From Eledone cirrhosa (taxonomy: Eukaryota): a DNA stretch of 64,000 nt. Where the stretch lies: the NCBI GenBank assembly GCA_964016885.1, contig OZ024740.1, forward strand, positions 329,158,001 through 329,222,000. Direction: 5' to 3'. The notes beneath the pieces are model-generated. The model made no database searches. It was not told the origin of the DNA and saw only the letters and a program-made list of their open reading frames with translations. This document shows, one piece after another, positions 6,149-51,146 of this stretch. Position 1 is the stretch's first letter, and each line of letters begins with the position of its first letter. The translations under genes were made by a program, and so were the position numbers.

Positions 6149-6690
6149 GTACATCGTTCCTTTGTCAGTCTGTATTCATATATGTATGTACGTATACATA
6201 CTTATATTTAAGTAACAGCCGTACCAAGAGTGAGAAATGAAATTTAGTTTCATTTTTTCCATTTATCGTTTTCGGTGCGCCCGGCTGATTATCTCACTCG
6301 ATATGCAAATTAGGCTGCTCAGCCGTTAATATGCATAAGGAAAGTATATACTTTCAGACGTTCAATCATCTGGCAGGAAGGTATACGTTGCTGACGATAG
6401 CTAATAAGCTTGAAACTAGTACATCGTTCCTTTGTTAGTGTTGAACAAAAGGGAAACGATGGTTGCTAAACACTGTACGGCTTAATTCGGGATGTTTATT
6501 TACAAACAAACCGAGCATTATAATAAATGTTCGGTTAATCCATACGTACATATATATATATGTGTGCATGTATATATATATACATGCTACTGTACGTCTG
6601 TATACATATATGTATGTACGTATACATACTTATATTTAAGTAACAGCCGTACTAAGAGTGGGAAATGAAATTTCGTTCATTTTTTCCATT
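6149..6690 (+). mobile_element. Retrozyme-like repeat family A, ~1.3 monomers
   Basis: Homologous to the 420-bp unit at 45732-46762. The segment AAGTAACAGCCGTAC(C/T)AAGAGTG occurs twice (~6210 and ~6638). Ends in (TA)n. Confidence 0.8.
6385..6427 (+). ncRNA. Type I hammerhead ribozyme (family A)
   Basis: ACGTTG-CTGACGA-TAGCtaataaGCTT-GAAA-CTAG-TA-CATCGT: canonical core, palindromic stem III ACTAGT, one mismatch in stem I. Confidence 0.8.
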
Positions 6691-7054
6691 TTTATATATA
6701 TATCTATATAGTGTTAGTATCATAAAGAGACAGTTTAATTTGTACATTTTATAACAGCATTCCTTTACACGTATATATACGTGTATATACATGTATATAT
6801 ACGTGTTATTTACAGTTCTATAAAAACGAAGTATAATTGTTTCTACTTTTGTCACAAGGCCAGCAATTATCCAGTACATCACTGGTACTTTATTATATAT
6901 AATATATATATAAGACAACATTCCTCTCTTTCTTACTCTATCTTTTTAGATAGATACTAAGCCATAACTCCTTATAATATCTCTCTGTCTGGCTGCCTGT
7001 CTGCATTGACTTCGCTTCTAAACACCTTTTAATTACTTATATATATATATATAA

Positions 7055-7530
7055 TTATATTAGAAATATAAGCTTTCATCGTATTTTTTACTAAAGAAAT
7101 TTTTAGCCTGATAGTGGGGTTTAGAACCTTTAGAGAATTGGAAAAAGATGAGTATTGACGTACATGGGAGTCGTACCCACGTCTTTGGTTATCCAGAACA
7201 CTGTGCTACCATTACATCAACACATCACCCATCTCCTTCCATTCAAATTAGAAGCTACATTCTTAGCAAGTAAATGACAAATAAGTATGTTTTGAAACAG
7301 TGAGCGAGTTTGAAATTAGAAATATAAGGTTTCCCCGTATTTTTGACTAAAGAGATTTTTAGCCTGATAGTGGGGTTTAGAACCCTCAGAGAAATGGAAA
7401 AAGATGAGTATTGATGTACATGGGAGTCGAACCCACATCTTTGGCTATCGAGACCACTGTGCTACCATTACACCAACACATCACCTATCTCCTTCCATTC
7501 AAATTAGAAGCTACTTTCTTAGCAAGTATT
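7055..7530 (-). repeat. ~256-bp tandem dimer, each unit carrying a tRNA-like sequence
   Basis: Two copies offset by 256 bp; the family recurs as an inverted pair at 23770-24230. Confidence 0.85.
7412..7482 (-). tRNA. tRNA-like cloverleaf (anticodon CGA, short variable arm); probable pseudo-tRNA
   Basis: Minus strand GATGTGTTGGTGTAATGGTAGCACAGTGGTCTCGATAGCCAAAGATGTGGGTTCGACTCCCATGTACATCA: A box, B box GGTTCGACTCC, paired acceptor stem, T5 run ~10 nt downstream. Sister copy at 7156-7226 has GGA. Confidence 0.55.
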
Positions 7531-11291: not shown

Positions 11292-11849
11292 AATTCCATA
11301 TATGGTCAAAGTGATTGTCAAAAATCAGTAGTAATTCTGTGGTTGCAAATTAGTAGGGGAGATGGTGGCTAAACCTGCCAGTAGGAGAAAGAGGGGAGGG
11401 GGTGGAGTAGACCCAATCAAGCGTTGGTAGTGCCAGCTACAGATGGGCATGAGGTCAAAGAAGATACAGGGGAGGGGGAGGGGGAAGAAGTCGGAACGGT
11501 AGGTAGAACAATGGGGGGTAGAAATATATAGGAAAGAAAAAATACTGAGAGTGAAGAAAAGCAAATAAGTGTAAAGAAAAAAGTATAGTAAATTCTAAGA
11601 CCTAGGTCTCTAGCTATTGTTAGGCTAGAATAAATAAATAAAGAAAGAAAGAAGTAAAGAAATAAATAAAGAAATAACGAAATAAGTAAAAGAACTAGGT
11701 GGGACGGAATAGGCAAGGACCCTTTTAAGAGGTATAAGTACGTAAATGATACGGTGACGGGTCAACAAAAGGGGCCAAAATACTAAAGAGACTACCACGA
11801 AATAAACAATAAAGGTTTCCATCCCGGGCACAATGCCAGCAACCACCCA

Positions 11850-13931
11850 GTGCAGCAAAGTGAACTAGTACGAGATAATAATTCTGAGTCCCGAATATAT
11901 GACAGATATTGCGACAACCAAGACTTAGGCACCAAGGAGAGATTCGGATTTATTACCTACAAATCTCCGCCCCTGAACCCCTTGCTCGCACCCTTCGAGA
12001 ATGACCTCTTCCAACTGGTCAAGAACATTAAATTTAAACCCAGACACAACCGAATCCTACAAAAACTCCGTAGCAACTTAACAGAGTATGATAACACAAA
12101 TGACATCATGGTGCATTCGGATAAAACTGGGAACCTATACTTTGTCAACCCTGACAGATACCACACACTGATCAGGAGCAGCCTAAAGTCCACCTATAAA
12201 AAGGCCAACCACTCTTGCATCGAGGACATAAATCGAGATGGACAACAAATTACCTCCAGCCTCGGGGTCGCCGACCGCACGGAACCTCTAGACCCACGGA
12301 CACCATACTTCACACTGAAGGACCATAAATCCGATTTTGACCGTAAACCCTCTATCAGGCTTATTAACCCAACGAAGTCCGACATAGGGAGAATCAGCAA
12401 AAAAATCCTAGACCGCGTGATACCAAAAGTCAAGCAACACACCCGACTTAGCCTATGGATCAACACCCAGGAAGTAATCTCCTGGTTCAGCAATATGGAG
12501 GATAAACGAGAAACTAAATTCATACAGTTCGACATAGAGACCTACTATGCTTCAATCACCTTACCGCTACTTACTGCCGCCTTGGACTTCGCCGAATCAC
12601 TTGTGCCCATCACCGACCAGGAAAGAAAAATCATCCTCCACGCCAGGAAGACAGTCTTACTCTTTGACGACTCTAAATGGATAAAAAGAGCTCCCGACTC
12701 ACCCTTCGACGTCAGCATGGGCGCCACGGATTCGGCGGAGGTCACAGATCTTATAGGATTATTCCTAATAGCCAAACTCACTGATATGTTTCCTGCATTC
12801 GGTGGTGGATTGTACCGTGATGATGGGCTCCTTACCCTTAAAGGGTACAACCCCAGTAGTACAGATCGGGTCCGTAAACAATTAATCAGATTCTTCCGCG
12901 ACTGGGGATTTAAAATAACACTACAAACATCCCTGACCCGAGTAAACTTCCTGGAGGTGACCCTCGACCTCGAAAACCACCTGTACTACCCATACAGGAA
13001 ACCTAATGACAATCTGCACTACATCCACCGCCGATCAAACCATCCTAGGAACATCACAAACAACCTGGTCAAAAACATTTCCCTCCGCATATCCCGTTTG
13101 TCAGCTAATGAGCGGATATTCGATGAACATGCGCCTTATTACAACCAGGCCCTCAAGCGGAGTGGTTTCCGGGAGGAAATATCCTACTGTCCAGCTCCCA
13201 TTAGCGGAACCAGCAGGAGACACCGCCGCTCACGCAATGTAACATGGTTCAATCCTCCCCACAACGCAGAGGTGACAACTCCCATCGGGAAACTATTCTT
13301 TAGGCTCATTGAAAAACACTTCCCATTACAACACCGCTACCACAACATAATTAACAAAAATACCATCAAACTCTCATACAGCACTACACCAAACTTCGCA
13401 CAAAACATCGTCTCCTCTAACAACAAAAAACTCAACCCCGATGGCAGAAATAACCTAAATAGCAGTGGAGAACCGACCAGGAGGTGTAACTGCCCGGATA
13501 AATCCATTTGCCCACTCGACAATAGATGCAGAGACCGTAATGTGATCTACCAGTGCAACGTGAGGACGGATACCTCCAACAAAGCCTATATAGGACTTAC
13601 CGCATGTGACTTCAAGACCCGGCTATACCAACATAGACATACCTTCCGAAACCCGGCCCGGCGTCACGCCACTACACTTTCGGGCCACATATGGGACCTC
13701 AAGGACAACAACATCACCTATGATCTCACTTGGAGATTACTGTCCAGAGCCAATTCTTACACGGGAGCACGCCCTCCGTGCAATTTATGCTCGGAGGAAA
13801 CTTTACAAATGCTGTTTTCGACGGACCAACTCCTAAACAAGAAAGATGAACTGGTTACTGCATGTAAACATAGATTGCGTAGGACTTACCTCGCCCTCAA
13901 ACCCCATAATGATCAGGGGGGGGGGGGGTAG
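11850..13931 (+). CDS. PLE reverse transcriptase plus C-terminal GIY-YIG endonuclease (open frame; true N-terminus probably lost at the 11894 inversion junction)
   Basis: RT motifs FIQFDIETYYASI, FDVSMGATDSAEVTDLIG, GLYRDDGL, VNFLEVTLDL. Linker CNCPDKSICPLDNRC. Endonuclease VIYQC...YIGLT...FKTRLYQH. C-terminal CNLCSEE...LLNKKDELVTACKH. The GTG start lies inside the inverted arm. Confidence 0.92.
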   Translation: MQQSELVRDNNSESRIYDRYCDNQDLGTKERFGFITYKSPPLNPLLAPFENDLFQLVKNIKFKPRHNRILQKLRSNLTEYDNTNDIMVHSDKTGNLYFVNPDRYHTLIRSSLKSTYKKANHSCIEDINRDGQQITSSLGVADRTEPLDPRTPYFTLKDHKSDFDRKPSIRLINPTKSDIGRISKKILDRVIPKVKQHTRLSLWINTQEVISWFSNMEDKRETKFIQFDIETYYASITLPLLTAALDFAESLVPITDQERKIILHARKTVLLFDDSKWIKRAPDSPFDVSMGATDSAEVTDLIGLFLIAKLTDMFPAFGGGLYRDDGLLTLKGYNPSSTDRVRKQLIRFFRDWGFKITLQTSLTRVNFLEVTLDLENHLYYPYRKPNDNLHYIHRRSNHPRNITNNLVKNISLRISRLSANERIFDEHAPYYNQALKRSGFREEISYCPAPISGTSRRHRRSRNVTWFNPPHNAEVTTPIGKLFFRLIEKHFPLQHRYHNIINKNTIKLSYSTTPNFAQNIVSSNNKKLNPDGRNNLNSSGEPTRRCNCPDKSICPLDNRCRDRNVIYQCNVRTDTSNKAYIGLTACDFKTRLYQHRHTFRNPARRHATTLSGHIWDLKDNNITYDLTWRLLSRANSYTGARPPCNLCSEETLQMLFSTDQLLNKKDELVTACKHRLRRTYLALKPHNDQGGGG

Positions 13932-15041: not shown

Positions 15042-15135
15042 ACCCCTTGAGAAGATCGGCTATTTAAATACCAGGATAAATTTTCATTTAGTCCAGAATT
15101 AGCCGTCGAAACGGCTTGAGCTCAGCTGTCGGGGT
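15042..15135 (+). ncRNA. Type I hammerhead ribozyme, U3-A8 core variant, in the PLE 3' pseudo-LTR
   Basis: ACCCC-TTGAGAA-GATCGGCTA...TAGCCGTC-GAAA-CGGCTtgagctcAGCTG-TC-GGGGT; all three stems pair. Confidence 0.7.
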
Positions 15136-15999: not shown

Positions 16000-17335
16000 A
16001 TAAAAGAGAAAACACAGGTAAGCATTAAGAGAAGGATTTTATCCAGGTATTTACGACCGTTTCATTGGTAAGTGCAACCTTATATTGCTATACTGCAAAT
16101 AGCAGCCACTCAATTATAATTGTTGTTCACGTCCAAATTTTCAGAATAGTGAGTAAGTCACTCTTGAAATAATTCTTAATATATAGAGAAATATATTTAT
16201 TTGGAATTGTATTTACTAGTATAGAGAGAGAGGAAGAGGAATCAGAAGGTGAGTGGACAAAAGGAATAGTATATAGAGAGAAGAAGGGGGAAGAGTTAGG
16301 ATGTAGAGTGACAAACTGAGATGGAGGGAGGGGTAGTTTTAATGTGTAGACTTTATGTCGTGGAATGTAGTGAATTAAAGAGAATTAAATTGATCATAGT
16401 GGGAGGGATGGATAGAGATAGAGAGAGGGGGTGGGGATATAAAGAGATAAATATATATATAAAAAATAAAGATAATAATGACAAAAATAAAAGCAAAGAA
16501 GGGGGGGGGTAAGAAGAAAAGAAAAGAAAGCCAAAAAGGGGAGGCAAGGAAGGAAGAAAACGAAGAAATAGAAGAGGAATGAAAGGGGTATATAGGTATT
16601 GTTTTTTGTGGGTAATTAAAAGGGTTAGATACAACAAGAGGGTATAAAGTCTAAGTATATGCAGTTTGTTAGTTGGTAGTAAGAGGTTAAGGGTTCGATT
16701 TGCACTTGTAGTGCGAAAACTTCTCTTTGAGTCTATGTTTACAATAATTTGATCTTTCGATTTTATTGTTGAGTAACTTATTCTTCGAACTCAAGATGTG
16801 GAACAGCTCACGGTCGCATAACCGACAGCTTCTTATACCACTCCGATATGGAGCGCGTTCGATAATTTTTTCCACTTCAGGGTGTATTTGTGGTTACTTT
16901 CCCTCAGTTGCCAGGTCTTGTTTGCAAGGGTAGTTACATTACGATGCTGGGAATGTTTCATTGCGTAACGGTGTGTATACCAATGGGCTTTAAATGTATT
17001 CCCAGTCGCTCCGATGTAATATCATTTCTGGTTGTCTGATTCCACTGTGCATTGGTAAACCAGGTTAGACTGCATACATTCATTATGTAATGGACAGGTT
17101 TCAGGTAGGTGACAGTTACAGTTCTTTTCATGGGCAACTTTGGCATTATTGGTCTGCTGCGATGCCTGTACAAGTATGTTACGTTTTGTTTACCTATTAG
17201 TGGGTGGTTGTGTATTAGATATTCTGTTGTGTTCAATGGTGATTGTATTGTTATTGTATTAAACTTGTGTTCTGGTGTTGTTATGTATCTTTTTAGCGAT
17301 AAGCATCTTAATGTGTGCCTCTATATTTGGTGCCG
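16000..17335 (-). mobile_element. Decayed Hydra-like PLE 3' end (GIY-YIG region plus 3' UTR with a degenerate HHR at ~16048-16148)
   Basis: Minus strand encodes NCNCHLPETCPLHNECMQSNLVYQCTV...YYIGATGNTFKAHWYTHR and RAPYRSGIRSCRLCDRELFHILSSKNKLLNNKIERSNYCKHR. UTR contains CTGAAAA-TTTGG...CCAAT-GAAACGGTC. Confidence 0.85.
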
Positions 17336-17344
17336 TGGAGTAAG

Positions 17345-17937
17345 ATTTACCTATCTTCCGGCCTTTCTGGAGAATCGTAGAAGCACATTTTAACTTAATT
17401 GTTTAAGCGTCAGTCATACAAAAGTGAGTTACAAACGAAACGAAATTTAATTTCGTTTCGTTATTTGTTTTTATCGTCTCCGTTGAACCGGTACGTACTC
17501 ACACTCTATGCAAATTAGTCTGCCCACTACTAATTTTCATAGAAAAAGCATATAACGATATGTGCTTCTACGATTCTCCAGAAAGGCCGGAAGATAGGTA
17601 AATATTGCTGATGAGTTGTAACAACAACGAAACTAGTTCAATATTCCTTGTCTGGCTTTCTGGAGAATAGAGGAAAGGTGTTTCCTCAAAAACCAGTATG
17701 ACGCTAAAAACCGGTTTGTCTGTGTGTTTACATACAGAATAGCTGGACACTCACAGTAAAGTGACCAGTGAAAAACTTGGTACATCTACATATGTATACG
17801 TGTGTGTATTCATATGCATACTAGTATTTCAGTATACATATGTGGATGTACATTTTTAACTTAATTGTTTAAGCGTCAGTCATACAAAAGTGAGTTACAA
17901 ACAAAACGAAATTTAATTTCGTTTCGTTATTTGTTTA
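17345..17937 (+). mobile_element. Retrozyme-like repeat, diverged subfamily B (466-bp period, ~1.2 monomers, short 5' inversion)
   Basis: TAACTTAATTGTTTAAGCGTCAG at 17391 and 17857; 17346-17387 is the reverse complement of ~17560-17602; same motif order as family A; ends in (TA)n. Confidence 0.75.
17601..17645 (+). ncRNA. Type I hammerhead ribozyme (subfamily B), fully canonical
   Basis: AATATTG-CTGATGA-GTTGtaacaaCAAC-GAAA-CTAG-TT-CAATATT: perfect 7-bp stem I, 4-bp stem II, GUU site. Confidence 0.9.
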
Positions 17938-18079: not shown

Positions 18080-18131
<52 letters not shown>

Positions 18132-18135
<4 letters not shown>

Positions 18136-21100
18136 CTCTCTCTGCTCAATAGCCTTCGTTCGTGCTGGTACTATTCTCTAAGCGCTCATATATTCACCTA
18201 GCTTACGCTAAACAGAATAATTTTTGAAGCTTGTTTTTCCCCCACGGTATGCTATATTTTCTGTTGTTCTCCTGTCTCACTCGCTTTACGCGTTTTAATT
18301 GTCCTAATAACTTATTTTGGTTATTATTGCACCGAAGTGAGATATATGATTTTTAATGCAATGAAATATCTATGATCTTCGGCAAATCACTGATGAGGGA
18401 CTTATTTTATTACATGTTACCATGTGCTACCTGCAGTATTTTTCTCTATATTTTAATACATATATTTACCACTGCGATTCTGTGTTTTTTTCTCTCTCTC
18501 TTACTGTTCCCCCATTCTCTCTGTTTCTCCCCCTCTGTCTTGTCCGTTAACTCTTCCTCACACTTTCACTCACTCACTGTTTTTCTCCCTCTTCTCTTCA
18601 TTTCATCCTGCACTCACGAACGCTATTTTTTCTCTCTCTGCTCAATAGCCTTCGTTCGTGCTGGTACTATTCTCTAAGCGCTCATATATTCACCTAGCTT
18701 ACGCTAAACAGAATAATTTTTGAAGCTTGTTTCTCCCCCACGGTATGCTATATTTTCTGTTGTTCTCCTGTCTCACTCGCTTTACGCGTTTTAATTGTCC
18801 TAATAACTTATTTTGGTTATTATTTCACCGAAGTGAGATATATGATTTTTAATGCAATGAAATATCTATGATCTTCGGCAAATCACTGATGAGGGACTTA
18901 TTTTATTACATGTTACCATGTGCTACCTGCAGTATTTTTCTCTATATTTTAATACATATATTTACCACTGCGATTCTGTGTTTTTTTCTCTCTCTCTTAC
19001 TGTTCCCCCATTCTCTCTGTTTCTCCCCCTCTGTCTTGTCCGTTAACTCTTCCTCACACTTTCACTCACTCACTGTTTTTCTCCCTCTTCTCTTCATTTC
19101 ATCCTGCACTCACGAACGCTATTTTTTCTCTCTCTGCTCAATAGCCTTCGTTCGTGCTGGTACTATTCTCTAAGCGCTCATATATTCACCTAGCTTACGC
19201 TAAACAGAATAATTTTTGAAGCTTGTTTTTCCCCCACGGTATGCTATATTTTCTGTTGTTCTCCTGTCTCACTCGCTTTACGCGTTTTAATTGTCCTAAT
19301 AACTTATTTTGGTTATTATTGCACCGAAGTGAGATATATGATTTTTAATGCAATGAAATATCTATGATCTTCGGCAAATCACTGATGAGGGACTTATTTT
19401 ATTACATGTTACCATGTGCTACCTGCAGTATTTTTCTCTATATTTTAATACATATATTTACCACTGCGATTCTGTGTTTTTTTCTCTCTCTCTTACTGTT
19501 CCCCCATTCTCTCTGTTTCTCCCCCTCTGTCTTGTCCGTTAACTCTTCCTCACACTTTCACTCACTCACTGTTTTTCTCCCTCTTCTCTTCATTTCATCC
19601 TGCACTCACGAACGCTATTTTTTCTCTCTCTGCTCAATAGCCTTCGTTCTTGCTGGTACTATTCTCTAAGCGCTCATATATTCACCTAGCTTACGCTAAA
19701 CAGAATAATTTTTGAAGCTTGTTTCTCCCCCACGGTATGCTATATTTTCTGTTGTTCTCCTGTCTCACTCGCTTTACGCGTTTTAATTGTCCTAATAACT
19801 TATTTTGGTTATTATTTCACCGAAGTGAGATATATGATTTTTAATGCAATGAAATATCTATGATCTTCGGCAAATCACTGATGAGGGACTTATTTTATTA
19901 CATGTTACCATGTGCTACCTGCAGTATTTTTCTCTATATTTTAATACATATATTTACCACTGCGATTCTGTGTTTTTTTCTCTCTCTCTTACTGTTCCCC
20001 CATTCTCTCTGTTTCTCCCCCTCTGTCTTGTCCGTTAACTCTTCCTCACACTTTCACTCACTCACTGTTTTTCTCCCTCTTCTCTTCATTTCATCCTGCA
20101 CTCACGAACGCTATTTTTTCTCTCTCTGCTCAATAGCCTTCGTTCGTGCTGGTACTATTCTCTAAGCGCTCATATATTCACCTAGCTTACGCTAAACAGA
20201 ATAATTTTTGAAGGTTGTTTCTCCCCCACGGTATGCTATATTTTCTGTTGTTCTCCTGTGTCACTCGCTTTACGCGTTTTAATTGTCCTAATAACTTATT
20301 TTGGTTATTATTGCACCGAAGTGAGATATATGATTTTTAATGCAATGAAATATCTATGATCTTCGGCAAATCACTGATGAGGGACTTATTTTATTACATG
20401 TTACCATGTGCTACCTGCAGTATTTTTCTCTATATTTTAATACATATATTTACCACTGCGATTCTGTGTTTTTTTCTCTCTCTCTTACTGTTCCCCCATT
20501 CTCTCTGTTTCTCCCCCTCTGTCTTGTCCGTTAACTCTTCCTCACACTTTCACTCACTCACTGTTTTTCTCCCTCTTCTCTTCATTTCATCCTGCACTCA
20601 CGAACGCTATTTTTTCTCTCTCTGCTCAATAGCCTTCGTTCGTGCTGGTACTATTCTCTAAGCGCTCATATATTCACCTAGCTTACGCTAAACAGAATAA
20701 TTTTTGAAGCTTGTTTCTCCCCCACGGTATGCTATATTTTCTGTTGTTCTCCTGTCTCACTCGCTTTACGCGTTTTAATTGTCCTAATAACTTATTTTGG
20801 TTATTATTTCACCGAAGTGAGATATATGATTTTTAATGCAATGAAATATCTATGATCTTCGGCAAATCACTGATGAGGGACTTATTTTATTACATGTTAC
20901 CATGTGCTACCTGCAGTATTTTTCTCTATATTTTAATACATATATTTACCACTGCGATTCTGTGTTTTTTTCTCTCTCTCTTACTGTTCCCCCATTCTCT
21001 CTGTTTCTCCCCCTCTGTCTTGTCCGTTAACTCTTCCTCACACTTTCACTCACTCACTGTTTTTCTCCCTCTTCTCTTCATTTCATCCTGCACTCACGAA

Positions 21101-21432
21101 CGCTATTTTTTCTCTCTCTGCTCAATAGCCTTCGTTCGTGCTGGTACTATTCTCTAAGCGCTCATATATTCACCTAGCTTACGCTAAACAGAATAATTTT
21201 TGAAGCTTGTTTCTCCCCCACGGTATGCTATATTTTCTGTTGTTCTCCTGTCTCACTCGCTTTACGCGTTTTAATTGTCCTAATAACTTATTTTGGTTAT
21301 TATTGCACCGAAGTGAGATATATGATTTTTAATGCAATGAAATATCTATGATCTTCGGCAAATCACTGATGAGGGACTTATTTTATTACATGTTACCATG
21401 TGCTACCTGCAGTATTTTTCTCTATATTTTAA
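18132..21432 (+). repeat. 496-bp tandem array, ~6.6 near-identical units, flanked by (TA)n
   Basis: Near-identical ORF translations recur every 496 bp (18372, 18868, 19364, 19860, 20356, 20852). Pyrimidine-rich like PLE 3' UTRs; each unit has CTGATGAGGGAC. Confidence 0.97.
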
Positions 21433-21470
21433 TATATATATATATATATATATAAATATGTGTGTGTATG

Positions 21471-21914: not shown

Positions 21915-21973
21915 AAATGTGTAAGTATGTATGTATACGTACATACATATATGTATACAGACGTACAGTAGCA

Positions 21974-22016
<43 letters not shown>

Positions 22017-22267
22017 GCAGGTACACATACATATATGTACGCATCAGTTTAGCGGACGCTTATTATAGCGCCCGCTTTGTTCGTTTGTAAACAAACTGAA
22101 CAGCCTGAATTTATGCCGCACGGTGTTAAGGCAACCACGTCACCTTTTTGTTCAACACCGTGCGGCATAAATTCAGGCTGTTCAGTTTGTTTACAACAAA
22201 CGAACAAAGCGGGCGCTATAATAAGCGTCCGCTAAACTGATGCGTACATATATGTATGTGTACATGC

Positions 22268-22312
<45 letters not shown>

Positions 22313-22748
22313 TGCTACTGTACGTCTGTATACATATATTTATGTACGTATACATACATACTTACATTTAAGTAAGTGCCGTACTAAGAGTGAGAAATGA
22401 AATCTCGTTTTGATTTTATTACATCTCATCGTTTTCGGTGCGCCTGACCGATTTAACTCACTCGATATGCAAATTAGGCTGCTCAGCCGTTAATTTTCAT
22501 AAGGAAAGTATATACTTTCGAACGTGCAACTATCTGGCAGATGGGTATACGGTGGTGATGATAGCTAACAAGCTTGAAACTAGTACATCGTTCCTGTGTC
22601 AGTGTTGAACAAAAAGGTGACGTGGTTGCCTTAACACCGTGCGGCATAAATTCAGGCTGTTCAGTTTGTTTACAAACGAACAAAGCGAGCGCTATAATAA
22701 GCGTCCGCTAAACTGATGCGTACATATATGTATGTGTACCTGCATGTA

Positions 22749-22822
<74 letters not shown>

Positions 22823-22935
22823 TGCTACTGTACGTCTGTATACATATATGTATGTACGTATACATACATACTTACATTTAAGTAAGTGCCGTACTAAGAG
22901 TGAGAAATGAAATTTCGTTTTCATTTTATTACAAC
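21915..22935 (+). mobile_element. Retrozyme-like family A insertion: inverted 5' arm (21915-22157) plus ~1.6 monomers; HHR at 22549-22591 with C3>G
   Basis: ACGGTG-GTGATGA-TAGCtaacaaGCTT-GAAA-CTAG-TA-CATCGT; GTACTAAGAGTGAGAAATGA at 22381 and 22891; left arm is the reverse complement of the unit. Confidence 0.8.
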
Positions 22936-22976
22936 TTATATATATATGTATATGTGTATATGTATGTATAAATGTA

Positions 22977-23769: not shown

Positions 23770-24230
23770 AACATGTAAGTATGTTTTTGAAACGGTGCGC
23801 GAGTTTGAAATTAGAAATTAGAAAATATAAGCGTTCACCGTATTTTACACTAAAGAAATTTCTAGCCTGATAGTGGGGTTTATAACCCTCGGAGAAATGG
23901 AAAAAGATGAGTGTTGCCGTGCATGGGAGTCGAACCCACATCTTTGGTTATCCAGACCACTCTGCTACCATTACACCAATACACATCCCATCTCCTTCTT
24001 GTTTATCATTTACTTGCTAAGTTCATAGCTTCTAATTCGAATGGAAGGAGATGGGATGTGTATTGGTGTAATGGTGGCACAGTGGTCTGGTAACCAAAGA
24101 TCTGGGTTCCACTCCCATGTACGGCAACATTCATCTCTTTCCATTTCTCCGAGCGTTATAAACCCCACTATCAGGCTAGAAATTTCTTTAGTCTAAAACA
24201 CGGTGAAGACTTATATTTTCTAATTTCTAA
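23770..24230. repeat. Inverted pair of the tRNA-like repeat (tRNA-like parts at ~23915-23987 minus and ~24055-24126 plus) between (TA)n tracts
   Basis: Homologous to 7055-7530; the two arms are reverse complements. Confidence 0.8.
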
Positions 24231-25244: not shown

Positions 25245-26453
25245 TATAAAATGATAGTGCTTTTATAAAGGAATTTATTAGGTATTGACATATGTTTCTG
25301 TAACAGACGGAATACCTATGTATCGCTGCTTACGTAATCATATAATTTTAGCAAGTATTCGATAGCAAATGTATAATCAGTTGTCACTTCTTCAGAGATA
25401 TTGGATAAATTGGAAAAAATCCTCCTTCAAATCTCGCCTTTATAGACATCGTTAGTCGATAAAACATGAAAACCAGCGTTATGCACCAACACTCGCAGAC
25501 AAGGCTTGGCAGCTTCGCGAAAATAACCAACAATTTAAGGTAAAATGAGATATAATAACTTCTGCGCCTGCAGATGACCAAGGACAGGAATTTTGTAAAT
25601 TGTGTAATATGGAATTATTTTGTATTATGAAATCCCAAAATATTTTATTAAATAACAGAATAGAGCGATCGTTATAATGTAACCATCGCTTGAAATCTAC
25701 ATTTTCATATTACAAACGTCACCAGGATTGAACGCCTGTCTCTATCTCCGTTTGATTGTCAAAATACATATTAACATTCTCTATTAGTCTTAATTCTATC
25801 AACTCTTCTATTCTTTACCATTTAATATAAACTGCTATAGATAAAATGAGATTTCTTAATTCAATTCCCTAATGCATATACCAGCAGGCTACCAGCATTG
25901 TTATTATACAGTAGCAGTGAAAATCTCCCTCTTCCTTAATTAACACTTTATATCTATTAATACTACTACACCAACCGACCAGCCCTGTCCATTGTTCAAT
26001 TGGTCAAATTCTTATTTACATAAAATAAGCCATATACTCATTGTATTCTCATTAGAAACCTTCTATATACTTGTTTACCAGTAAATTGAATTGCAATCTG
26101 TCATATACTTTCCCCTCTCTTCTTCCTTTCTTACAACTAATATAAATACTTCAATTTTTCTGATTTTTTCCAATTTATCCAATATCTCTGAAGAAGTGAC
26201 AACTGATTATACATTTGCTATCGAATACTTGCTAACATTATATGATTACGCAAGCAGCGATACATAGATATGCCGTCTGTTACAGAAACATATGTCAATA
26301 CCTAATAAATTCCTTTATAAAAGCACTTTCATTTTATATTCATCTTTTATACATTTTCTCCGGAATATAATTTATACTCGTTGAGCAAACCTATACGTAC
26401 GCTGTTCATCTCTAACGTGACGATATATTATCACTACATTATTAATAACTTGA

Positions 26454-43961: not shown

Positions 43962-44315
43962 ATATACAATATATTAACAAATGGAAACTATATTTATAAA
44001 ACCATATTTATTTTATTATACATATTTCAAGGGCCACCAAGGTAAATTATGGTGCGCTTTCATCAGATTAAATACAATAGAGATTAGTTTTATAAATAAA
44101 TATTGACATACCCTGAAAAAAGAATATCCAGGAAGCTCCAACCGTTAAGATTGTCTTTTTTCAGGATATGTCAATATTTATTTATAAAACTAATCTGTAT
44201 TGTATTTTATCTGATGAAAGCGCACAATAATATGCCTTGGTGGCTCTTGAAATATGTATAATAAAATAAATATGGTTTTATAAATATAGTTTCCATTTGT
44301 TAATATATTGTATAT
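43962..44315. repeat. Foldback (~160-bp arms) carrying an HHR in each arm
   Basis: Arms are reverse complements around a ~30-bp spacer at ~44125-44150. Confidence 0.85.
44203..44268 (+). ncRNA. Type I hammerhead ribozyme
   Basis: TATTTTAT-CTGATGA-AAG...CTT-GAAA-TATGTA-TA-ATAAAATA; 8-bp stem I. Confidence 0.7.
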
Positions 44316-45605: not shown

Positions 45606-45733
<128 letters not shown>

Positions 45734-46037
45734 CAAACACACCGAGCATTATAATAAATGTTCGGTGAATCCATACGTACATATATTTATGTGTGCATGT
45801 ATGTATATACATATACATACTACTGCACGTCTGTATACATATATGTATGTACGTGTACATACTTATATTTAAGTAACAGCCGTGCTAAGAGTGGGAAATA
45901 AAATTTCGTTTCATTTTTCCTGTTTATCGTATTCGGTGCACCCGGCCGATTAACCCACTCGATATGCAAATTGGGCTACTCAGCTGTTAATATGCATAAG
46001 GTAAGTATATACGTTCAACAATCTGGCAGGAAGGTAT

Positions 46038-46080
46038 ACGTTGCTGATGATAGCTAATAAGCTTGAAACTAGTACAGCGT
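46038..46080 (+). ncRNA. Type I hammerhead ribozyme (family A)
   Basis: ACGTTG-CTGATGA-TAGCtaataaGCTT-GAAA-CTAG-TA-CAGCGT; GUA site, cleavage predicted after 46074. Confidence 0.88.
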
Positions 46081-46457
46081 TCCTTTGTCAGTGTTGAACA
46101 AACGAGCAACGATGGTTGCTGGACACTACGGCTTAATACGGGATGTTTGTTTACAAACACACCGAGCATTATAATAAATGTTCGGTGAATCCATACGTAC
46201 ATATATATATGTGTGCATGTATGTATATACATATACATACTACTGCACGTCTTTATACATATATGTATGTACGTGTACATACTTATATTTAAGTAACAGC
46301 CGTACTAAGAGTGGGAAATGAAATTTCGTTTCATTTTTCCTGTTTATCGTATTCGGTGCACCCGGCCGATTAACCCACTCGATATGCAAATTGGGCTACT
46401 CAGCCGTTAATATGCATAAGGTAAGTATATACGTTCAACAATCTGGCAGGAAGGTAT

Positions 46458-46500
46458 ACGTTGCTGATGATAGCTAATAAGCTTGAAACTAGTACAGCGT
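46458..46500 (+). ncRNA. Type I hammerhead ribozyme (family A), second tandem copy
   Basis: Identical to 46038-46080; cleavage predicted after 46494. Confidence 0.88.
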
Positions 46501-46759
46501 TCCTTTGTCAGTGTTGAACAAACGAGCAACGATGGTTGCTGGACACTACGGCTTAATACGGGATGTTTGTTTACAAACACACCGAGCATTATAATAAATG
46601 TTCGGTGAATCCATACGTACATATATATATGTGTGCATGTATGTATATACATATACATACTACTGTACGTCTGTATATATATATGTATGTACGTGTACAT
46701 ACTTATATTTAAGTAACAGCCGTACTAAGAGTGGGAAATGAAATTTCGTTTCATTTTTC

Positions 46760-46823
<64 letters not shown>

Positions 46824-49694: not shown

Positions 49695-51146
49695 ATACAA
49701 AAATAACACCAAATACAACCACGGTAATTTACCAAATTCCACAAATAAGGATACTAACCATAGGAATTCTTCTAGAACACAACACAATAATATAAGTGGT
49801 AATAAGAACTTAACTAAAAACCGCAAAAGAAACATGACATGGTACAACGCACCCTTCAACCTGCAAACTATTGGACAAATCCCCCCAAAATTCTGTGAAA
49901 TTCTACATAAACATTTTCCACCAAACCACAGATACCACCAAATATTTAATAAATATACTGTTAAATTCTCATACTCTACATCAAGCAATCTCCAGCAAAA
50001 AATATGCAACTACAACATTTATAAACTTTAAAATAATATGTCTACACCACCACAACATAATTTAAATAGGACTGCACATTTTAAAAAGGCAAATAATACA
50101 ATCCTTCAACCTAGAAAATACAACCACCCAAATCACCAAAACAAAAACAACAGAACACAAAATCACAATACAACCCTAGCACCAAACCACCCACAAAGCA
50201 ACCTTCATTCTCCTGCTATCATTAATTACAATAGGAATAGCTCAAGGATTAATGAGAATAGTATAGCCACCCCAACAATCATCTTACGTATGGCTGTAAT
50301 TGCAGAAATAGAAGCATTTTCCCCTTAAATGGCAAGTATTTTATTAATAATGTAATATATAAATGCACTGTGTCTACTACAGGCTCCAACAAAACATATA
50401 GGATCTACATCAAATACATTTAAGAAAAGATTTTACGCATACTCTAGTAGTTTCAACAATACTAAACTAGCTAACACCACATCTTTAGCTGAAGCGGTAA
50501 ATAATTAAAAAAAGAAAAAAATAGATTTCAAGTTATCGTGGAACACCATTCAACAAAGAACTCCATATCTTGGGAACAGGAGGGAATGCAGATTATGTTC
50601 AGGGGAGATTTTGGAAATTACTAAATCTAAGGACGATTTATTAAATAAAAGGCAGGAACTGGTCATAGTTTGTAATCACCGTATACGAAGAACATTTAAT
50701 ACTATAAACCTAATTAAATACTATGAACCTAATTAAATATTCTAAATACCAACTCACTATAATTCTATATAGAGTAACATTTATTAGTACCCCTTTCCCC
50801 TAATTATATGCATTTATGCTTATGTTTTACCTTTTAATGTTTTAGCTTCCTTAGGTTTATGCGTTATTGACTAAAGGCAACAAGGTACACAACCACCCGT
50901 AATTGCATGAGTAAATATATATCTATGTATGATATGGACATATATTTATGTGTCTGTATATATATATATATATTTGTATGTGTATATATGTATGTATATA
51001 TATATGTATATGTATGTGTGTGTCTGTATGTGTATATATATAGGTGTGTGTGTGTGTGTGTATATGTGAGTTTAGGTGTATGAGTGTTTATATATGAGTA
51101 TGTGTACATGTATGAGGAGTGTATATACACACACATATATATATGT

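Follow-up and report, generated by a model that had tools for sequence, protein, structure and literature searches.

The 64,000-nt stretch of Eledone cirrhosa DNA analyzed here (the window) contains members of two families of short repeats, A and B, in which we located predicted type I hammerhead ribozymes. Family B is present as an arm of one 466-bp unit plus 83 bases (17388..17936, +), whose long (tail) end lies in (TA)n, and as a short inverted segment (17339..17388, −) that copies about 17560-17609 and shares with the arm a C at 17568 that is absent from other B copies. The 466-bp period that had been assigned to this subfamily from the sequence alone holds (17388 and 17854), and the insertion amounts to about 1.2 units with a single hammerhead. 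A tail hairpin (17434..17462, +) lies between two fixed insertion ends and is repeated near 17904-17928. The putative hammerhead (17601..17645, +) is composed of stem I (AATATTG, 17601-17607, with CAATATT, 17639-17645, +), the core CTGATGA (17608-17614, +), stem II (GTTG/CAAC around a TAACAA loop, 17615-17628, +) and GAAACTAGT, which runs to 17637 (+); stem I, core and stem II are present exactly where the sequence-only reading had placed them. A palindromic ACTAGT (17632-17637, +) replaces a stable stem III, and the predicted cut site follows 17638 (GUU, +). Stem I is extended (17573..17668, +) by a UA bulge, an AGG/CCU helix, a covarying 5-bp helix and a distal helix.

Both this motif and the family A motif at 46038-46080 contain CUGANGA, GAAA and NUH with helix I open, the features of a type I hammerhead. 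A stable helix III was not found in the monomer, which offers AC-UA-GU only; the self-complementary ACUAGU duplex was computed at −4.8 kcal/mol. The fold of 17570-17675 had a z of −6.1. An Rfam scan at the gathering level called no hammerhead; the best of the 32 matches listed was Hammerhead_HH9 (E = 6.7e-08; 37.7 bits against a gathering score of 52), which aligned over its full length to the motif, including the UA bulge in stem I and the six-base loop II. Genome-wide, the core pattern had 40,335 matches compared to 11 for a reversed control, and the two families total about 40,000 motif copies. With its one motif, the window's family B copy could cut only alongside a partner molecule.

Family A is represented by an array of 2.5 copies of a 420-bp unit (45732..46767, +), with hammerheads at 46038-46080 and 46458-46500, a U-G stem I pair and a GUA triplet; its stem I reads ACGTTG/CAGCGT (46038/46075 and, in the second copy, 46458/46495, +). 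Another copy (22154..22939, +), with an inverted partner arm at about 21920-22158, has a G-U stem I pair within ACGGTG/CATCGT (22549/22586, +), and both of these stems had been described correctly. The core is identical in the family A motifs at 46038, 46458 and 6385 and in the family B motif. The earlier statement that both subfamilies keep it is thus right for 17601 and 46038 and wrong for 22549, which reads GTGATGA owing to a C3G change at 22555; here the stems are retained and the core departs from the type I pattern. In the Penelope hammerhead tested, C3G abolishes cleavage (PMC11167929). The 22549 copy is a sporadic mutant. As a spreading dead lineage it was rejected, the 11 exact matches being on different backgrounds, and several C3G copies adjoin intact neighbors. 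A third family A copy (6168..6700, +; hammerhead 6385-6427) has U-U at one stem I pair, a mismatch where the amplified subfamilies have G-U, A-U or U-G. Mismatch combinations of this pair numbered 287 (U-U) and 167 (purine-G), with 24,012 matches to a related shorter pattern; the 287 are scattered and at the level of point mutation, and the idea that the U-U copy (6391) is an evolutionary intermediate that became amplified was not supported. In most family A copies the pair at the base of stem II is U-U, and in an older A subfamily it is mainly C-A. The proposed covariation of stem II (AGC/GCT versus GTTG/CAAC) consequently fails at the first pair, which is broken rather than compensated. The missing G-C pair usual at this position may lower activity in family A.

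The two families are homologous along their whole units, which measure about 420-490 bp in A and 466-469 bp in B. End-to-end alignment of the A1 and B1 monomers gave 292 identical letters out of 410 (71%). Outside the ribozyme, a stretch running from the tail hairpin to the upstream one scored 116, compared to a maximum of 66 in 500 shuffles, and the segment after stem I scored 54, a value reached by one of 500 shuffles. Insertion ends of A and B also fall at homologous positions. Hence the concern raised beforehand, that A and B might be non-homologous outside the core, was not borne out. These results bear directly on the possibility that A and B had no common origin and are hammerhead repeats or satellites that converged on one core, with their covariation an artefact of alignment. 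Little sequence is common to the stems of A and B, and Rfam did not call the motif at its gathering level, as convergence would have it; the identity of 71%, significant beyond the ribozyme, and the matching ends nevertheless refute this explanation, to which we give almost no credence.

Covariation of the helices was assessed on 220 loci plus the window, which yielded 199 distinct copies covering the region; after four rearranged copies were dropped, 116 copies from 61 sites remained for A and 79 from 40 sites for B. Most loci were gathered with core-containing patterns, so the alignment is biased toward intact cores. Of the 38 paired positions in the A1 and B1 hammerheads, 20 have different letters in the two families, yet 17 of 19 pairs survive (null mean 8.9, P = 7e-5; with the changed positions held fixed, mean 12.5, P = 0.009); the exceptions are the outermost pair of stem I and the one at the base of stem II. 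The paired stem changes claimed between A and B are therefore compensatory beyond chance. In an alignment of 16 natural copies spanning the subfamilies, with helices taken from the family B fold, two-sided change occurred in 9 of 19 hammerhead pairs and in three of six pairs of the next hairpin, and 91.9% of cells were paired, compared to 82.3% after shuffling and about 40% after sliding. The 12 covarying pairs were no significant excess over shuffles (10.3; 69 of 500 reached that number) because most two-sided changes trace to the single A/B split. RNAalifold alone recovered stems I and II, with 11 of its 42 pairs two-sided. Two-sided changes within lineages comprised U-A/A-U in stem II of B, A-U/G-U/G-C in its distal stem and G-U/A-U/U-G in stem I of A; a pattern dominated by the GATG/CATC form of stem II in B had 4,325 genome matches. 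The hairpin following stem I (17670..17687, +) has two-sided changes between B and some A subfamilies, and three of its six pairs break in register in the A2 and A4 rows. The sequence-only reading had held that RNA structure, not DNA sequence, is conserved; pairing is indeed kept, and so is sequence (71% identity and an invariant octamer-like motif).

We then compared variants found at many insertion sites (shared; at least eight sites in A, at least four in B) with those found at one (private). Shared alleles are those passed on by source elements, and private alleles are post-insertion. In A, 13 of 23 shared alleles gave canonical pair states versus 28 of 132 private ones; in B the counts were 8 of 9 versus 15 of 50. 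Because transitions alone favor wobbles, G-U outcomes were compared with A-C outcomes: among transitions, the ratio was 15:1 for shared and 28:32 for private alleles, and that for shared alleles was 11:1 (P = 0.004) once four states that were the reference's own were removed. Variants transmitted by lineages thus respect the pairs, as expected if selection acts on RNA pairing, and copies decay at random after insertion. This tolerance of G-U, read from the genomic copies, points to pairing in RNA. A-to-I editing was rejected as the source of the G-U excess: private changes showed no strand bias, with A>G and T>C numbering 10 and 10 in B and 21 and 24 in A, although the corresponding shared counts in B, 7 and 3, are too small to judge.

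The amplified subfamilies were paired and core-intact. Matches with a changed C3 numbered 495, on varied backgrounds, versus 24,012 for the related pattern. When the core was left free, a count by eye found a core change in 10 of the first 100 of 17,745 matches, of which three were an identical change within one cluster and the others were scattered; N7 in the same 100 matches was U in 19 and C in 81. Among the genome matches examined, core-broken copies never formed a dispersed subfamily. A local array at C1:70.06-70.08 Mb (G000:C1:70056826-70076895) contains 15 copies with a common C3A core change, indicating that tandem amplification in DNA is possible without an intact core. Further large families with the ACTAGT palindrome were sought with three exclusion patterns, which returned an older A subfamily, a B subfamily and point mutants (first 100 places each).

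The upstream hairpin (17506..17542, +; fold z = −5.7) is conserved and non-covarying. It had been thought to covary; the hairpin is present, and in 16 rows eight of its ten pairs were invariant, one changed on one side, one was broken in seven rows and none changed on both sides. The 3′ arm commonly occurs in two forms, and in one of them a pair is lost. The exact octamer ATGCAAAT (17508-17515, +) forms the 5′ arm in family A at 55 of 61 sites and in family B at 39 of 40. Newt satellite 2, with a promoter of the small-nuclear-RNA type, would be a precedent for promoter motifs in such repeats, for which our literature search gave no confirmation. ATGCAAAT is possibly a DNA promoter motif, a reasonable reading since small nuclear RNA promoters have this Oct1 consensus in their distal element (PMC1790723).

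Family B copies are dispersed and 98-100% identical, and they end in (TA)n at two positions of the unit, about 10-19 and 83-88. Both ends were visible in 14 of 21 B insertions, each of which pairs a long end on one strand with a short end on the other, giving head-to-head arms with two kinds of end; family A insertions show both end classes as well. An inverted partner copy, a one-sided tail and a microsatellite target are signs of mobilization by Penelope-like elements, in which the inverted partner and one-sided tail have been described (PMC8557442) and reverse transcription that begins at two internal sites accounts for the tail (PMC11167929). The genome holds intact Penelope-like frames of about 784 aa, and the footprint suggests that A and B were probably mobilized by a Penelope-like element. 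In the window, a 714-aa frame (11787-13928, +; 3′ region to about 15227), for which Pfam returned no family, is one that we take to be Penelope-like from its reverse transcriptase, cysteine linker and GIY-YIG-like motifs. It fits the published description of such elements (PMC8557442). Many genome copies of its family are 98% identical and have open frames of about 784 aa, a number of them arranged as 3.5-kb tandems, and a hammerhead-like motif with a non-standard core occurs near 15047-15120 in its 3′ region. A 5′-truncated, broken copy of a second Penelope-like family, with stop codons and a frameshift (about 16000-17338, −), abuts the inverted B segment. This fragment was rejected as parent or co-inserted partner of B and is a separate insertion, as it differs by 3.3% from its family's column majority and is much older than B, and 0 of 19 other copies of the fragment's family were joined to B at the corresponding position. 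Comparison of A and B with 30 loci of one active Penelope-like family gave AT-rich or flanking matches only, and the families compared yielded no autonomous element whose ends match. Other 3′ fragments of Penelope-like kind lie at about 25400-25730 and 49800-50700.

On sequence and structural grounds, A and B can be classified as non-LTR retrozymes, two lineages of one non-coding repeat. They form arrays of 420-, 466- and 469-bp units, each unit with a predicted type I hammerhead; GC content is 36% in B and 38% in A1, and the longest Met-started frames are 50 and 97 aa. Folded as circles, the units reached −158.3 kcal/mol (B; −95.3 ± 5.0 in 40 shuffles) and −142.3 kcal/mol (A; −93.5 ± 4.8 in 40 shuffles). 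Metazoan non-LTR retrozymes likewise carry a type I hammerhead in short, low-GC, non-coding tandem repeats, with a strongly self-paired monomer, tens of thousands of copies and two hammerhead families per genome, and axolotl families share the weak palindromic helix III and the U-U mismatch at the base of helix II (PMC7229834). A and B differ in that units of 420-490 bp are at or above the upper end reported and are known from DNA, and two-armed insertions with Penelope-type ends do not appear in the passages compared (PMC7229834). Hammerheads of Penelope-like elements are of a minimal type, whereas those of A and B are canonical with an extended stem I and no reading frame, and A lacks the conserved G10.1-C11.1 pair; the unstable helix III of A and B fits the dimer-dependent type (PMC4209133). 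The footprint matches that of Penelope-like elements in its AT-rich or (TA)n target, inverted 5′-truncated partner and one-sided, two-start tail, but the tail is about 50-75 bases rather than 30-40, and A and B are non-autonomous (PMC11167929, PMC8557442). Penelope-like elements have been proposed as origin and mobilizer of retrozymes, with which they co-occur, as is the case here; Xenopus retrozymes resemble pseudo-LTRs, while A and B had no such resemblance to the two Penelope-like families compared, and eight of nine Xenopus retrozyme dimers did not cleave (bioRxiv 10.64898/2026.07.22.740005). A literature search covering main texts returned no description of families A and B. Close relatives of both occur in contigs of runs X4, X5 and X6, coded as other organisms; a 496-letter contig of run X4 wraps round the 466-base unit, as tandem DNA would also do.

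Taken together, we think it probable that the copies that spread kept the hammerhead pairs and core because their RNA had to fold and self-cut before Penelope-like copying into (TA)n: half of the paired letters were rewritten with pairing kept, which likely reflects selection on a self-cutting RNA. Tandem copies would be transcribed, possibly from the octamer-containing segment; two motifs would pair through the ACUAGU palindrome into a double hammerhead and cut after GUH (PMC4209133, PMC7229834). The monomers would probably be circularized by a host ligase, and a Penelope-like enzyme would nick (TA)n and begin copying at two sites flanking the tail hairpin. A dimer requirement would, in our reasoning, explain the unchanged palindrome beside fast-changing stems. 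The stronger wording of the sequence-only reading, that these repeats propagate through an RNA that needs self-cleavage, is likely but went too far as stated: core and pairs are intact in amplified lineages, whereas the C3A array was amplified, and in vitro, mutating the hammerhead of the anole Penelope element had no effect on its insertion (PMC11167929), which leaves the need for cleavage unproven. More tentatively, and rather doubtfully as a whole, the two families could represent a self-contained RNA replicon with an octamer promoter, a dimer-dependent hammerhead and a two-site Penelope priming hairpin. Their 40,000 copies would then constitute a natural mutational scan; catalysis would be required for spread, ACUAGU would be frozen by the need for a matching partner, cleavage of A by B and of B by A would be possible, and the stems would outpace the rest of the unit.

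The in vitro result also fits a different role, in which selection preserves the fold and core because the Penelope protein binds or packages the RNA through them, or because they stabilize the RNA, while cutting is dispensable and the ribozyme rides along. Naiad elements reach high copy numbers without canonical hammerheads (PMC8557442), covariation extends to hairpins outside the ribozyme, and the base of stem II is weak in family A. We regard this role as improbable, since variation sits where catalysis tolerates change: position N7 carries U or C, shared alleles have A, U or C and never G immediately before the cut, and none of them falls at a catalytic position, deliberately sampled C3 mutants aside. 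Template switching in inverted-repeat-rich elements, which can yield multi-base compensatory changes without selection (PMC8794818), would agree with the inversions and fold-back junctions common in A and B insertions, with the unamplified mismatch intermediates of the A stem I pair and with the faster change of the stems (20 of 38 letters, compared to 98 of 372 in the rest of the unit). Opposite-strand copying, however, produces Watson-Crick pairs, and G-U wobbles predominate among the shared states, which also include a flip from G-U to U-G; an invariant unpaired core would also be left unexplained, and these points weaken the mechanism enough that we consider it very unlikely as the source of the paired changes.

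Selection on a self-cutting RNA, the reading we prefer, addresses the role of the hammerhead in Penelope-like elements and retrozymes, where it is dispensable for insertion in vitro. That core and pairing are conserved at the level of lineages while inserted copies decay freely constitutes genomic evidence for a role of the ribozyme in spread in vivo, and natural A and B variants are ready-made constructs. Families of hammerheads rich in compensatory changes within single genomes were reported in 2014 (PMC4209133); as the element class and hammerhead covariation were already known, A and B are supporting evidence rather than a new system.

Several other repeats were observed in and around the window. 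A 496-bp tandem array (18128-21441; 6.7 copies, 99% identical) is inserted at family B's (TA)n tract, and in every unit a GAAA precedes CTGATGAG, an arrangement that might represent a permuted hammerhead. Other hammerhead-like motifs occur at 44211 (+), 44066 (−), 39558 (−), 47229 (+) and 61664 (−); in several, different short palindromes replace stem III, and 44066 and 44211 form an inverted pair. Elsewhere in the genome (G000:C1:5738327-5752443), 31 B units on one strand face one on the opposite strand, all with the GATG/CATC stem II, an array very long for a single insertion. Finally, tRNA-like Rfam matches at 7412-7482 and 23917-23985 (−) are probably the heads of short interspersed repeats.
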